DNA from: a virus
Taxonomy: Duplodnaviria; Heunggongvirae; Uroviricota; Caudoviricetes
Length of the DNA: 5,447 nt
Reading direction: 5' to 3' (one strand)
Virus record (IMG/VR): IMGVR_UViG_2671180669_000012
A program made the position numbers and the translations under genes. The notes beneath the pieces are model-generated. The model was not told the origin of the DNA, did no database searches, and saw nothing but the letters and a program-made list of their open reading frames with translations. Shown one piece after another: positions 102-5,447 of the stretch. Every line of letters begins with the position of its first letter. Within the stretch, counting starts at the first letter, position 1.

Positions 102-2504
102 GTGCAGGACCGACCGTCGGATAAGGTGTGGACCTATAACCGCAGTAATGTGGTGATGCCGGATGATGGCGCGCCGTTCCGCTACAGCTTCAGCGCCCTG
201 AAGGACCGTCATAATGCCGTTGAGGTGAACTGGATTGACCCGAATAACGGCTGGGAGACGGCGACAGAGCTTGTTGAAGATACGCAGGCCATTGCCCGTT
301 ACGGTCGTAATGTCACGAAGATGGATGCCTTTGGCTGTACCAGCCGGGGGCAGGCACACCGCGCCGGGCTGTGGCTGATTAAAACTGAACTGCTGGAGAC
401 GCAGACCGTGGATTTCAGCGTGGGTGCTGAAGGGCTTCGCCATGTACCGGGCGATGTCATTGAAATCTGTGATGATGACTATGCGGGTATCAGCATCGGC
501 GGGCGCGTGCTGGCGGTGAACAGCCAGACGCGGACACTGACGCTCGACCGTGAAATCACGCTGCCATCCTCCGGCACCACGCTGATAAGCCTGGTTGACG
601 GACAGGGGAATCCGGTCAGCGTGGAGGTCCAGTCCGTCACCGACGGCGTGAAGGTGAAAGTGAGCCGGGTTCCTGACGGCGTTGCAGAATACAGCGTGTG
701 GGGGCTGAAGCTGCCGACGCTGCGCCAGCGCCTGTTCCGCTGCGTGAGTATCCGTGAGAACGATGACGGTACGTATGCCATCACTGCCGTGCAGCATGTG
801 CCGGAGAAAGAAGCCATCGTGGATAACGGGGCGCACTTTGACGGCGACCAGAGCGGCACGGTGAATGGTGTCACTCCGCCAGCAGTGCAACACCTGACCG
901 CAGAAGTCACCGCAGACAGCGGGGAATACCAGGTGCTGGCGCGCTGGGATACGCCGAAGGTGGTGAAGGGCGTGAGCTTTATGCTTCGCCTGACCGTGGC
1001 AGCGGATGACGGCAGTGAGCGGCTGGTCAGCACAGCCCGGACGACGGAAACCACATACCGCTTCAGGCAGCTGGCTCTGGGAAATTACAGTCTGACAGTC
1101 CGGGCGGTAAATGCGTGGGGGCAGCAGGGCGATCCGGCGTCGGTATCGTTCCGGATTGCCGCACCGGCAGCGCCATCGCGGATTGAGCTGACGCCGGGCT
1201 ATTTTCAGATAACCGCCACGCCGCATCTTGCGGTTTATGATCCGACGGTACAGTTTGAGTTCTGGTTCTCGGAAAAGCGGATTGCGGATATCAGGCAGGT
1301 TGAAACCAGCGCGCGTTATCTTGGTACGGCGCTGCACTGGATAGCCGCCAGTATCAATATCAAACCGGGCCATGATTATTATTTTTACGTTCGCAGTGTG
1401 AACACCGTTGGCAAATCGGCATTCGTGGAGGCTGTCGGTCGGGCGAGCGATGATGCGGAAGGTTACCTGGATTTTTTCAAAGGAGAAATCGGGAAAGCAC
1501 ATCTGGCCCAGGAGCTGTGGACGCAGGTTGATAACGGTCAGCTTGCGCCTGATCTGGCTGAAATCAGGACGTCCATTACGAATGTCAGCAATGAAATCAC
1601 GCAGACCGTCAATAAAAAACTGGAAAATCAGAGCGCGGCAATCCAGCAGATACAGAAAGTTCAGGTTGATACAAATAATAACCTGAACAGCATGTGGGCC
1701 GTGAAACTGCAGCAGATGAAGGACGGACGCCTTTATATTGCGGGTATCGGAGCCGGTATTGAGAATACGCCAGCAGGTATGCAGAGTCAGGTGCTTCTGG
1801 CTGCTGACCGGATTGCGATGATTAATCCTGCGAATGGCAACACAAAGCCGATGTTTGTTGGTCAGGGCGATCAGATATTCATGAACGAAGTGTTCCTGAA
1901 ATACCTGACGGCTCCCACCATTACCAGCGGCGGTAATCCTCCGGCATTTTCCCTGACACCGGACGGGCGGCTGACGGCGAAAAATGCCGATATCAGCGGT
2001 AACGTGAATGCGAACTCCGGGACGCTCAACAACGTCACGATTAACGAAAACTGTCGGGTTCTGGGAAAACTGTCCGCCAACCAGATTGAAGGCGATCTCG
2101 TTAAAACAGTGGGCAAAGCTTTCCCCCGGGACTCCCGTGCACCGGAGCGGTGGCCATCAGGGACCATTACCGTCAGGGTTTATGACGATCAGCCGTTTGA
2201 CCGGCAGATTGTTATTCCGGCGGTGGCATTCAGCGGCGCTAAACATGAGAAAGAGCATACTGATATTTACTCCTCATGCCGTCTGATAGTGCGGAAAAAC
2301 GGTGCTGAAATTTATAACCGTACCGCGCTGGATAATACGCTGATTTACAGTGGTGTTATTGATATGCCTGCCGGTCACGGTCACATGACACTGGAGTTTT
2401 CGGTGTCAGCATGGCTGGTGAATAACTGGTATCCCACAGCAAGTATCAGCGATTTGCTGGTTGTGGTGATGAAGAAAGCCACCGCAGGCATCAGTATCAG
2501 CTGA
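102..2504 (+). CDS. J: Host specificity protein J (lambda gpJ-like central tail fibre), C-terminal ~800 aa only; 5'-disrupted, probably a gene remnant or pseudogene
   Basis: 800-codon ORF ending at TGA 2502-2504. The translation ([106 protein letters not shown]...) is near-identical, as far as I recall, to the central part of lambda gpJ (about 1130 aa full length). In this frame there are stops at 33-35 (TAG) and 42-44 (TGA), and the other two forward frames are also closed within the first 80 nt. The first in-frame start is GTG at 102 with no Shine-Dalgarno sequence. J-like coding appears to begin around nt 81 (NGQTLTF). Confidence 0.85.
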
Positions 2505-2522
2505 ATTTTATAACCCATATAC

Positions 2523-2550
2523 GGGCGCCAGAAATGGCGCCTTTTTTATT
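2523..2550 (+). terminator. Putative Rho-independent terminator downstream of J
   Basis: Perfect GC-rich inverted repeat GGCGCC (2524-2529) / GGCGCC (2536-2541) around a 6-nt loop AGAAAT, followed immediately by TTTTTT (2542-2547). Sits 19 nt after the J stop codon. Confidence 0.6.
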
Positions 2551-2571
2551 GCAGAAAAGCGAGAGGTAATT

Positions 2572-2643
2572 ATGCGTAAAGTTTGTGCAGCCATTTTGTC
2601 CGCAGCCATCTGTCTGTCCGTATCCGGTGCGCCTGCATGGGCG
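2572..2643 (+). other. Sec signal peptide of Lom (24 codons)
   Basis: Positively charged N-terminus (MRK), hydrophobic core (VCAAILSAAICLSV), then A-W-A before SEHQ, a typical signal peptidase I site. Predicted by eye only. Confidence 0.6.
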
Positions 2644-3171
2644 TCTGAACATCAGTCCACACTGAGCGCGGGGTATCTTCATGCCCGTACGAACGCTCCC
2701 GGCAGCGATAATCTGAACGGGATTAACGTGAAATACCGTTATGAGTTTACGGACGCGCTGGGGCTGATTACGTCCTTCAGTTATGCCAATGCTGAGGATG
2801 AGCAAAAAACGCACTACAGCGATACCCGCTGGCATGAAGATTCCGTGCGTAACCGCTGGTTCAGCGTGATGGCGGGGCCGTCTGTACGCGTGAATGAATG
2901 GTTCAGCGCGTATGCGATGGTGGGTGTGGCTTACAGCCGTGTGTCGACTTTCTCCGGGGATTATCTCCGCGTAACTGACAACAAGGGGAAAACGCACGAT
3001 GTGCTGACCGGAAGTGATGACGGTCGCCACAGCAACACGTCTCTGGCGTGGGGGGCTGGCGTGCAGTTTAACCCGACCGAATCCGTGACCATTGACCTTG
3101 CTTATGAAGGTTCCGGTAGTGGCGACTGGCGAACGGATGCATTTATTGTTGGTATCGGATACCGTTTCTGA
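2572..3171 (+). CDS. lom: Lom-like outer membrane beta-barrel protein (Ail/Lom/PagC family), prophage moron
   Basis: 199-aa ORF with ATG at 2572 preceded by GAGAGG (2561-2566). N-terminal signal peptide MRKVCAAILSAAICLSVSGAPAWA with an AxA cleavage motif. Motifs shared with lambda Lom as I recall it: GINVKYRYE, VMAGP, SAYAM-GVA-SR, IDLAYEGSGSGDWRTDAFIVGIGYRF with the C-terminal Phe typical of OMP barrels. Position between J and stf matches lambda gene order. Confidence 0.9.
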   Translation: MRKVCAAILSAAICLSVSGAPAWASEHQSTLSAGYLHARTNAPGSDNLNGINVKYRYEFTDALGLITSFSYANAEDEQKTHYSDTRWHEDSVRNRWFSVMAGPSVRVNEWFSAYAMVGVAYSRVSTFSGDYLRVTDNKGKTHDVLTGSDDGRHSNTSLAWGAGVQFNPTESVTIDLAYEGSGSGDWRTDAFIVGIGYRF

Positions 3172-3275
3172 CAACAGACGCCGATTTATCTTCTGTAAAT
3201 ATTGTTATGATACGCAGGTTCATCCACCTTATGGGGTGAACTGCGTTTGAGGAAACGTAAAGTTACACTGTCCTG

Positions 3276-3310
3276 AAGCCCGTGGCGTCACTGCTGCGGG
3301 CTTTTTTTAT
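3276..3310 (+). terminator. Putative Rho-independent terminator downstream of lom
   Basis: AAGCCCG (3276-3282) pairs with CGGGCTT (3297-3303) around a 14-nt loop, followed by a run of seven T (3302-3308). Lies 105 nt after the lom stop and 13 nt before the stf start. Confidence 0.5.
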
Positions 3311-3322
3311 TGGTGGAAAAGT

Positions 3323-5254
3323 ATGACAGTAAAAATTTCTGGCGTGCTTAAAGATGGCACAGGAAAACCAGTACAGAACTGCACCATTGTGCTGAAGGCC
3401 AGACGAACCAGCAGCACGGTGGTGGTGAACACGGTGGCCTCTGAAAATCCGGATGAAGCCGGACGTTACAGCATGGATGTTGAGCATGGCCAGTACAGCG
3501 TCACCCTGCTGGTTGAAGGTTTTCCGCCTTCACATGCCGGGATCATTACCGTCTATGAAGGTTCCAGACCCGGTACGCTGAATGATTTTCTCGGTGCCAT
3601 GACGGAGGATGATGTCCGACCGGAGGCACTGCGCCGCTTTGAGCAGATGGTGGAAGAGGTGTCACGTAACGCCTCCGCGGTTGCACAGAACACGGCAGCC
3701 GCGAAGAAGTCAGCCAGCGATGCCAGCATATCTGCCAGTGAGGCGGCAACCCATGCGACTGATGCTGCAGGCTCAGCACGTGCAGCCAGCACATCAGCCG
3801 GGCAGGCCGCGACGTCGGCTCAGTCAGCGTCTTCCAGCGCAGGAACGGCATCAACAAAGGCTACTGAAGCATCAAAAAGTGCTGCCGCTGCAGAGTCCTC
3901 AAAAAGAGCGGTGGCTACCAGTGCCGGTGCGGCGAAAACGTCAGAAACGAATGCGGCTGCGTCACAACAATCAGCAGCCACTTCTGCATCCACCGCGACC
4001 ACGAAAGCGTCAGAAGCAGCCACTTCAGCACGGGATGCGGCGGCCTCAAAAGAGGCAGCGAAGACATCCGAAACGAATGCGAAAGCCTCGGAAACCAGCG
4101 CAGAATCCTCAAAAACGGCTGCCGCATCGTCCGCCAGTTCGGCGGCGTCATCGGCATCATCTGCGTCTGCTTCAAAAGATGAGGCGACCAGACAGGCGTC
4201 AGCAGCAAAGGGCAGCGCCACGACGGCATCCACGAAGGCGACAGAGGCAGCTGGCAGTGCGACGGCGGCAGCTCAGAGCAAAAGTACGGCGGAATCCGCG
4301 GCAACGCGCGCCGAGACAGCGGCAAAACGGGCAGAGGATATTGCATCCGCCGTGGCGCTTGAGGATGCGAGCACGACGAAAAAGGGGATAGTACAGCTCA
4401 GCAGTGCGACCAACAGTACGTCTGAAACGCTGGCGGCAACGCCAAAGGCAGTAAAATCAGCCTATGACAATGCAGAGAAACGTCTGCAGAAAGACCAGAA
4501 CGGCGCTGATATACCCGATAAGGGACGCTTCCTGAACAACATTAACGCGGTCAGTAAAACAGACTTTGCTGATAAGCGTGGTATGCGTTATGTGCGGGTT
4601 AACGCTCCTGCAGGTGCAACATCTGGAAAATATTACCCTGTTGTTGTTATGCGTTCTGCTGGCTCAGTAAGCGAACTGGCATCAAGGGTCATTATCACCA
4701 CGGCAACGCGAACCGCAGGCGATCCGATGAATAACTGCGAGTTTAACGGATTTGTTATGCCTGGTGGCTGGACTGACAGGGGGCGTTATGCTTATGGAAT
4801 GTTCTGGCAATATCAAAACAATGAACGAGCCATCCACTCAATAATGATGAGTAATAAGGGCGATGATTTGCGCTCTGTGTTCTATGTTGATGGCGCTGCT
4901 TTCCCTGTTTTTGCGTTTATCGAAGATGGCCTGTCAATATCCGCACCTGGTGCTGATCTCGTTGTTAATGATACGACCTATAAGTTTGGGGCAACAAATC
5001 CAGCGACTGAATGTATCGCGGCGGACGTTATCCTTGATTTTAAGAGTGGGCGTGGTTTTTATGAGTCTCATTCGTTAATCGTTAACGATAATTTGTCGTG
5101 CAAAAAACTTTTTGCCACAGACGAAATTGTAGCGCGTGGTGGTAATCAGATTCGAATGATAGGTGGGGAGTATGGTGCATTATGGCGTAATGATGGCGCT
5201 AAAACTTACCTGCTGCTTACCAATCAAGGTGATGTTTATGAAGTGGCACACTGA
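3323..5254 (+). CDS. stf: Side tail fibre protein (lambda Stf N-terminus with Rac StfR-like distal region), 3'-truncated by IS insertion; the last codons and the stop lie inside the IS
   Basis: 643-codon ORF, ATG at 3323 with GGTGGA 5 nt upstream. The N-terminus MTVKISGVLKDGTGKPVQNCTIVLKARR...GQYSVTLLVEGFPPSHAGIITVYEGSRPGTLNDFL matches lambda Stf (orf-401) as I recall it. It contains the conserved tail-fibre motif KKGIVQLSSATNSTSETLAATPKAVK (about 4373-4456). The downstream region (NCEFNGFVMPGGWTDRGRYAYGMFWQYQNNERAIHS..., GGEYGALWRNDGAKTYLLLTNQGD) resembles Rac StfR-type fibres. Intact homologues are about 770-1120 aa; here the frame runs into the IS911 inverted repeat and stops at TGA 5252-5254. 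Confidence 0.85.
   Translation: MTVKISGVLKDGTGKPVQNCTIVLKARRTSSTVVVNTVASENPDEAGRYSMDVEHGQYSVTLLVEGFPPSHAGIITVYEGSRPGTLNDFLGAMTEDDVRPEALRRFEQMVEEVSRNASAVAQNTAAAKKSASDASISASEAATHATDAAGSARAASTSAGQAATSAQSASSSAGTASTKATEASKSAAAAESSKRAVATSAGAAKTSETNAAASQQSAATSASTATTKASEAATSARDAAASKEAAKTSETNAKASETSAESSKTAAASSASSAASSASSASASKDEATRQASAAKGSATTASTKATEAAGSATAAAQSKSTAESAATRAETAAKRAEDIASAVALEDASTTKKGIVQLSSATNSTSETLAATPKAVKSAYDNAEKRLQKDQNGADIPDKGRFLNNINAVSKTDFADKRGMRYVRVNAPAGATSGKYYPVVVMRSAGSVSELASRVIITTATRTAGDPMNNCEFNGFVMPGGWTDRGRYAYGMFWQYQNNERAIHSIMMSNKGDDLRSVFYVDGAAFPVFAFIEDGLSISAPGADLVVNDTTYKFGATNPATECIAADVILDFKSGRGFYESHSLIVNDNLSCKKLFATDEIVARGGNQIRMIGGEYGALWRNDGAKTYLLLTNQGDVYEVAH
3668..4357 (+). repeat. 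Ala/Ser/Thr-rich low-complexity region of the Stf shaft with degenerate internal repeats
   Basis: Stf residues about 116-345 are almost entirely A/S/T/K/E. Repeated motifs: AKTSETNA at residues 204-211 and 246-253 (nt about 3932 and 4058, spacing 126 nt); TASTKATEA at residues 175-183 and 301-309; ESSK-A at 191-195 and 261-265. The GCN/TCN/ACN codon bias leaves overlapping frames free of stops. Confidence 0.7.
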
Positions 5255-5274
5255 ATTTGGCCACCTGAACAGAG
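5239..5274 (+). repeat. IS911 left terminal inverted repeat (IRL)
   Basis: Terminal about 36 bp starting with TGAAGTGG, recognised from memory of the IS911 IRL. The exact inner boundary is uncertain. Confidence 0.7.
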
Positions 5275-5310
5275 GTGATATGCTCACCTCAGAACAACAC
5301 AGGTGCTCCA

Positions 5311-5447
5311 ATGAAAAAAAGAAATTTCAGCGCAGAGTTTAAACGCGAATCCGCTCAACTGGTTGTTGACCAGAACTACACGGTGGCAGATGCCGCCAAA
5401 GCTATGGATGTTGGCCTTTCCACAATGACAAGATGGGTCAAACAACT
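5311..5447 (+). CDS. insN: IS911 OrfA (helix-turn-helix transposase subunit / regulator), 5' part; 3' end off window
   Basis: ATG at 5311. The translation [45 protein letters not shown] matches the N-terminus of IS911 OrfA (InsN in E. coli K-12 nomenclature) including its HTH region. The ORF is open to the window end. Confidence 0.85.

Follow-up and report, generated by a model that had tools for sequence, protein, structure and literature searches.

A 5'-truncated mosaic J gene with a probable OmpC-type tip in a degraded, IS-bounded lambdoid prophage of Shigella sonnei

The stretch of DNA analyzed here (5,447 bp, hereafter the window) is a whole Shigella sonnei draft contig (CXEX01000209.1, assembly GCA_001261655.1) with insertion sequence (IS) ends on both sides. 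A contig ending in repeats at both sides is a typical short-read assembly product of an IS-rich Shigella genome. Between the two IS ends lies a lambdoid tail-end block consisting of a fragment of the tail-tip gene J (positions 82 to 2504), an intact lom gene (2572 to 3171), and the 5' portion of stf, the side tail fibre gene (3323 to 5238), all of them located on the plus strand, as are all other features described below. Matches to phages and to complete Escherichia coli genomes all begin at position 81 and stop at positions 5240 to 5247, and the gene order J-lom-stf is common to lambda, VT1-Sakai, and PhiR55_1. An IS end is found upstream of J in place of the genes I, K, and L. The lom product (199 aa) is an outer-membrane beta-barrel of the Ail/Lom type, which is matched over its full length by Pfam Ail_Lom (E = 5.8e-126), and the gene is syntenic in every relative examined. 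Between J and lom, a terminator-like hairpin followed by a T-run was picked up by consensus scan only (2523 to 2542; eight pairs, six of which are G-C, then TTTTTATT), and the number of terminator-like sites within the window does not exceed that found in shuffled sequences.

On the right side, stf is interrupted after ~639 of its ~1025 codons. What is left of it matches the Pfam families phage_tail_N, Phage_fiber_2, and Gp34_trimer, its homology to the stf gene of the HCP5S3 prophage (3078 nt) ceases at position 5240, and the reading frame continues to a stop codon (5252 to 5254) within the adjoining IS. The latter is the left end of an IS3-family element (5239 to 5447), with a terminal repeat starting TGAAGTGGCAC and an orfA gene starting at position 5311. 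Positions 5235 to 5447 match, with 99.5% identity, loci annotated as IS3-family transposases in 4205 E. coli genomes, and the called gene (5311 to 5447) matches Pfam HTH_Tnp_1; the N-terminus of OrfA presumably resembles that of IS911.

On the left side, positions 1 to 81 correspond to the right end of an IS21-family element, comprising the istB tail and a terminal repeat that ends with TTGACA (76 to 81). This end was recognized by its match to annotated istB 3' ends: the first 87 to 90 nucleotides of the window are 95.6 to 98.9% identical to IS21-like (istB) 3' ends in 2074 E. coli genomes, and the IS terminus could be placed at positions 81-82 by aligning the window with the copy that sits in yafV in E. 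coli O121. The call covers the 81 nucleotides of this one end of the element. When the IS21-J junction was searched for as an exact string in a collection of species-representative genomes, no match was returned.

Homology to J starts directly after the IS21-family end, at positions 81-82, that is, at lambda codon ~353, and extends to the equivalent of lambda gpJ residue 1132. The corresponding open reading frame (ORF; 102 to 2504, 800 aa) begins with a GTG, which is the first in-frame start codon and is not preceded by any evident Shine-Dalgarno sequence, and in-frame stops are found further 5', at about positions 33 to 35 and 42 to 44. When compared with lambda gpJ by BLASTP, the ORF product spans residues 360 to 1131, and its match to the hub family (Pfam Phage-tail_3) does not begin until profile position 33 of 164. 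In intact relatives, J is 3480 nt long and encodes about 1159 residues, so that about 352 N-terminal codons are absent here, and a full-length J (about 1130 to 1160 aa, with N-terminal hub domains that form the tail tip together with gpL, gpI, and gpM) is not found at the locus. We conclude that this copy of J is a 5'-truncated, IS-bounded pseudogene remnant, very probably non-functional; because the hub domains are absent and the side-fibre gene is broken as well, it presumably makes no functional tail tip. The original prediction, made from the sequence of the stretch, had treated the gene as an allele with a probably different or altered receptor specificity. A functional allele is very probably absent, as an IS21-family end adjoins the gene and no start codon precedes the GTG at position 102. 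An intact, functional host-range allele with a novel receptor specificity is indeed a very improbable reading of the locus. The 800-aa frame is open throughout, with no internal stop and with all distal domains intact, and lom is intact 3' of J, but the N-terminal codons have been replaced by the IS21-family end, with in-frame stops upstream. Nor is the specificity class novel, since the tip is nearly identical to those of 1A2 and VT1-Sakai and belongs to a type carried by 62% of the complete E. coli genomes (see below).

What remains of J shows the distal layout of a lambda-type tail fibre, namely FNIII domains, shaft, prism, and receptor-binding domain (RBD). Four Pfam families are matched far over their cut-offs: Ig_J (ORF aa 251 to 355, E = 6.5e-43), Ig_J_second (aa 357 to 459, E = 1.7e-39), Phage_Tail_Tip (aa 513 to 641, E = 1.8e-31), and Ig_GpJ_C (aa 670 to 800, positions 2109 to 2501, E = 1.4e-37). 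The first two delineate two lambda-type Ig/FNIII-like domains (FNIII-1 and FNIII-2; 852 to 1478), with about 97% protein identity to lambda. They are followed by a long variant of the alpha-helical shaft module (1485 to 1706), by the central straight fibre or beta-prism (1638 to 2024, Phage_Tail_Tip), and by a neck and an Ig-like RBD (2001 to 2504), which we assign to the '1A2'/VT1-Sakai type on the basis of Pfam and of its match to 1A2, and which is probably an OmpC binder. Sequence matches of the ORF to lambda gpJ in the PDB reach E-values of 1e-112 to 1e-114. The fold of J is assigned here because of this homology to solved gpJ structures; AlphaFold2 run on positions 2040 to 2501 with single-sequence input gave a pLDDT of 40.8 and a pTM of 0.34.

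Comparison with lambda gpJ reveals a succession of sharply delimited segments. Protein identity amounts to 97% (447/461) for aa 1 to 461 of the ORF (102 to 1484) and falls to 23% (17/74) for aa 462 to 535 (1485 to 1706), where 28 residues have no lambda counterpart (BLASTP yields a net insertion of 29 residues in the shaft). It is 59% for aa 536 to 589 (1707 to 1868), rises to 90% (51 of 57 residues) for aa 590 to 646 (1869 to 2039), and drops again to 43% (66 of 154) for aa 647 to 800 (2040 to 2501). Maximum chi-square breakpoints relative to lambda are located at positions 1484 (identity shifting from 0.96 to 0.34), 1847 (0.61 to 0.87), and 2029 (0.89 to 0.54), and sliding-window nucleotide identity, which is not uniform along the gene, gives the same picture as the protein segments. 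These values agree closely with the original prediction, in which J was described as lambda-like up to position 1484, abruptly different from position 1485, lambda-like again at about 1870 to 2050, and only loosely similar to lambda over its last ~150 residues.

The segment starting at position 1485 had also been described as heptad-like. This holds for the shaft core (PDLAEIR...AVKLQQ), whose hydrophobic periodicity of 3.6 residues is reached by 1.2% of shuffles, but not for the whole 77-residue shaft segment, in which periodicity is not significant (16% of shuffles). In lambda gpJ, the homologous segment has been solved as a three-helix bundle, an alpha-helical shaft to which the second FNIII domain is joined from above (PMC11101478). 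In the solved lambda structure, the RBD proper corresponds to the last ~130 to 150 residues. The heptad-like segment is a structural shaft and not a receptor determinant. A tandem-repeat search gave no sign of local duplication as the origin of the extra shaft residues.

The window was aligned with seven relatives, and the closest relatives were found to change along the gene. Between positions 81 and 1150, lambda, PhiR55_1, PhiR34_1, and the E. coli HCP5S3 prophage are close (87 to 100% identity), while VT1-Sakai, JLK-2012, and PhiR5_1 are distant (52 to 86%). From position 1149 onward, VT1-Sakai climbs to 90 to 98%. Between positions 1490 and 2000, the close relatives are VT1-Sakai, HCP5S3, PhiR55_1, and PhiR34_1 (88 to 100%), and the distant ones are lambda (13 to 89%) as well as JLK-2012 and PhiR5_1 (56 to 73%, up to position ~1970). 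Nucleotide identity of the shaft itself is 97 to 99% with VT1-Sakai and HCP5S3 and 89 to 97% with PhiR55_1 and PhiR34_1. Finally, from about position 2000 to position 2504, VT1-Sakai, PhiR55_1, JLK-2012, PhiR5_1, and HCP5S3 are close (94 to 100%), and lambda and PhiR34_1 are distant (46 to 73%). The corresponding breakpoints, at position 1982 for JLK-2012 and PhiR5_1 and at position 2055 for PhiR34_1, fall inside or at the edge of a conserved island (1869 to 2039; lambda residues ~923 to 975), which is both a natural and an engineered crossover site.

The identity boundaries had been taken for recombination junctions, and the discordance of best relatives between segments, with matches of 94 to 100%, bears this out. 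The sequence comparison thus points to three modules (hub/FNIII, shaft and prism, and tip) that have been reassorted independently. PhiR34_1 combines a long shaft like that of the window with a different tip, and shaft length is therefore not coupled to the receptor module. One may argue instead that J diverged from lambda by gradual accumulation of point mutations under diversifying selection on the tip, as RBDs are known targets of such selection and as identity to lambda falls stepwise and not to zero. We consider this scenario extremely unlikely, because each divergent segment is 94 to 100% identical to some phage whose other segments reach only 55 to 75%, identity shifts are abrupt (for example, from 0.96 to 0.34 at position 1484), and shaft lengths differ by 28 to 29 codons.

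The RBD of the window is identical to that of PhiR5_1 and differs by one residue from that of VT1-Sakai. It shows 42 to 43% protein identity and about 50 to 60% nucleotide identity to lambda gpJ residues ~985 to 1132, and thus shows no close similarity to the LamB-binding RBD of lambda. Its closest characterized match is gpJ '1A2', a J tail that occurs naturally in an E. coli prophage and was built into the EB003 delivery particle (Brödel et al., Nature 2024, PMC11338833). In that study, natural gpJ tails were fused to lambda gpJ after residue 964, and two of them, A8 and 1A2, deliver DNA via OmpC when the recipient cells lack lamB. In lamB/ompC deletion strains into which OmpC variants had been reintroduced, 1A2 accepted EDL933-type OmpC along with many further variants, K-12 OmpC not being among them. 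OmpC-dependent, LamB-independent delivery by a 1A2 chimera has also been reported elsewhere (bioRxiv 10.1101/2025.02.28.640725). The engineered fusion point corresponds to position ~2000 of the window and lies within the natural crossover zone. As the published 1A2 gene is recoded, comparison at the nucleotide level is uninformative, and the two tails were compared as proteins. Of the 168 residues that run from GNVNANSG to the end of the protein, at least 160 are the same in the window and in 1A2, whose sequence was obtained by frame-tolerant translation from a machine-read PDF supplement containing frame slips, with about 7 to 8 unreadable positions. There is one clear difference in the tip, which ends with AGISIS in the window and with AGITIS in both 1A2 and VT1-Sakai; this S/T difference concerns the third residue from the C-terminus, in a strand conserved across all tip types.

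The closest C-terminal match is therefore not a LamB-binding J but an OmpC user, in agreement with the original prediction that receptor specificity is altered relative to lambda. By analogy with 1A2, we infer that the tip of intact carriers would use OmpC and not LamB. The 1A2 result might not be transferable if the tip of intact relatives bound another receptor, either LamB as well or a different porin. One residue does differ from 1A2 and VT1-Sakai, in addition to the few 1A2 positions that are unreadable; 1A2 itself distinguishes between OmpC variants (PMC11338833); and small changes in lambda J are known to add OmpF use, as mentioned in PMC13190303. We nonetheless regard a different receptor as unlikely, given the position of the differing residue in a conserved strand, the identity of at least 160 of 168 residues with a tail that works through OmpC without LamB, and the fact that the next closest solved relative, A8, is an OmpC user as well. 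As regards other sources of receptor information, we found the PhiR phages of the ECOR panel in the ManYZ/SNIPE work, and our search of the literature on this panel returned no receptor assignment; a 2026 receptor-prediction preprint covers GpJ of Drexlerviridae and excludes lambda-type tips.

The tip and the shaft of the window are both widespread. The tip type (2040 to 2504) was detected in 3387 (62%) of the 5426 complete E. coli genomes searched, an identity of at least 95% was reached by 2433 records, and the tip is identical in E2348/69 and others; the long-shaft module was detected in 3508 of the same 5426 genomes. Lambda's own tip was found in only 98 of them, and the five records listed are all laboratory strains, including DE3 lysogens. 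The original prediction had called the shaft and tip divergent, but they represent the commonest form in E. coli prophages and lambda represents the rare one. The term divergent therefore merely reflects the choice of lambda as a reference.

Although incomplete, the J fragment might be expressed, for instance if transcription read out of the adjoining IS21-family element, and might yield a soluble fragment (FNIII, shaft, prism, and RBD) with some activity such as OmpC binding. The IS21-family end does carry a perfect TTGACA facing outward (76 to 81), an N-terminally truncated lambda gpJ that begins at residue 713 is soluble and able to bind its receptor in vitro (PMC11101478), and three assemblies retain the 800-aa ORF unchanged, with its product entered as 'host specificity protein [Shigella sonnei]'. 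Yet a promoter scan detected no promoter-like site leading into the truncated ORF and no -10 element matching the TTGACA, and the GTG start lacks an evident Shine-Dalgarno sequence. The product also has no signal peptide, so a cytoplasmic protein could not reach the outer face of OmpC, and the presence of the ORF in three near-identical draft assemblies probably reflects clonality instead of selection. Expression of an active fragment thus appears most improbable. Equally speculative, and to be given hardly any weight, is the idea that outward transcription from the IS might supply a soluble trimer of the same domains, similar to gpJ713, which S. sonnei would have retained for an OmpC-related function, or that the longer shaft might tune the triggering of DNA ejection.

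We are instead highly confident that the window contains the distal part of a lambdoid J in a degraded S. sonnei prophage, a mosaic with an OmpC-type tip that persists as a non-functional remnant. According to published work on relatives, the intact protein of about 1159 residues would form a trimer, the central tail fibre, with hub domains, two FNIII domains, a three-helix shaft, a beta-prism, and an Ig-like RBD in this order. In published structures and genetics of lambda and of chimeras, loops of the Ig-like tip enter the trimeric porin, and the resulting change is relayed via the prism and the shaft until the tail opens. The present copy is made up of at least three modules, each exchanged independently of the others: a lambda-type hub/FNIII part (82 to 1484), a long-shaft and prism module widespread among E. 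coli prophages (1485 to ~2000), and a receptor-binding module of the 1A2/VT1-Sakai type (~2001 to 2504), with the conserved island probably providing the homology for tip swapping. Judging from its near-identity to 1A2, the tip would bind the O157-type and several other variants of OmpC, but neither the K-12 variant nor LamB. An IS21-family element has removed or separated the first ~352 codons, including the hub domains needed for the tail tip, and an IS3-family element has cut stf next door.

The mosaicism of J, the tip class and its receptor, and engineering at the crossover island are already known, and beyond annotation the present case is of little importance. It shows that a 'host specificity protein' deposited from a draft Shigella genome can in fact be a fragment truncated by an IS, and that lambda is an atypical J reference, as the majority form in E. 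coli prophages has the window-type tip and shaft. For receptor prediction, the sequence can be labelled as a 1A2/VT1-Sakai-type OmpC tip. As for the island at lambda residues ~923 to 975, this natural crossover site is already in use by engineers for switching lambda particles from LamB to OmpC.

Compared with known systems, the J of the window has the same domain order as lambda gpJ (P03749; structures 8IYK, 8XCJ, and 8XCK), and their RBDs are homologous (Ig_GpJ_C). Lambda residues 360 to 820 are 97% identical to the window and the island 90% identical, whereas the lambda shaft is 28 to 29 residues shorter and partly unalignable, and the lambda RBD, which binds LamB, shares 42 to 43% protein identity with that of the window. 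The best match among solved structures is A8 gpJ 713 (PDB 9wca/9wcb; E = 1.3e-134), ahead of lambda gpJ. The neck and RBD of A8 are 56 to 61% identical to those of the window, with two indels and a shared C-terminal strand; A8 is an OmpC user that accepts K-12 OmpC too, which 1A2 does not (PMC11338833). As for 1A2, it was tested as a chimera on full-length lambda J, while the window copy is devoid of its N-terminal third. VT1-Sakai (Sp15, AP000400), an Stx1 prophage, shows 97.6% nucleotide identity over positions 1485 to 2504 and 99% protein identity over shaft, prism, and RBD, but only 55 to 83% identity 5' of position ~1149, where it carries a different hub/FNIII module; its J is annotated as split by mutation. 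The PPompW/Stx2a prophages of E. coli O157 group with VT1-Sakai as close J relatives. Finally, PhiR55_1 carries the same three-module combination as the window in a full-length J (1159 aa; 92 to 100% identity along positions 81 to 2504), and PhiR5_1 shares its RBD. Both are plaque-forming, induced lambda relatives from the ECOR collection with an intact J, in contrast with the truncated copy of the window.

The tip of J is its C-terminal receptor-binding module, and our data suggest that the LamB-binding tip of phage lambda (4440-4904 in the lambda sequence used here) is rare among natural prophages, as it was detected in only 98 of the 5426 complete E. coli genomes, with every match at 99% identity or higher, and as the five matching records listed all come from laboratory strains, namely K-12, B and DE3 lysogens. 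Among lambda relatives, the host given in the records of PhiR55_1 and PhiR5_1, which carry the same tip type as the window, is E. coli C, and that of PhiR34_1, which carries a different tip, is K-12 MG1655. These hosts, which are record metadata only, fit the reported non-use of K-12 OmpC by 1A2, a published gpJ tail variant nearly identical to the J tip of the window.

The neighboring gene lom (window 2540-3170) is mosaic among relatives too. Over positions 2540-2700, identity is 72-80% with VT1-Sakai and PhiR55_1 but 92-100% with the related phage JLK-2012 and with PhiR5_1. Further downstream, identity reaches 99-100% with VT1-Sakai (2720-3050) and is 76-77% with PhiR55_1 (2720-2870).

The side tail fibre gene stf (window 3323-5254) is cut by an IS3-family element after codon ~639 of ~1025, its ORF continuing for 4-5 codons inside the element before a stop, and neither the distal receptor-binding part of stf nor tfa is on the contig. 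Outside the stf frame, the minus strand included, the Ala/Ser/Thr-rich low-complexity stretch of Stf (window 3650-4400) generates many long spurious ORFs (137-260 aa), none of which is a gene.

The window corresponds, edge to edge, to a whole Shigella sonnei draft contig, bounded by an IS21-family right end (1-81) and an IS3-family left end (5239-5447); the contig thus breaks at repeats. A perfect, outward-facing TTGACA closes the IS21-family terminus (76-81), and we found no usable -10 downstream of it, nor was any promoter called there by a promoter scan.

The closest phage match to the shaft, prism and tip part of J (window 1485-2504) is the J of VT1-Sakai (AP000400), the Stx1 prophage of E. 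coli O157 Sakai. Decay of J is common in resident prophages, since even the annotation of the VT1-Sakai J (548-4020) splits the gene into two CDSs, described as "truncated by a mutation".
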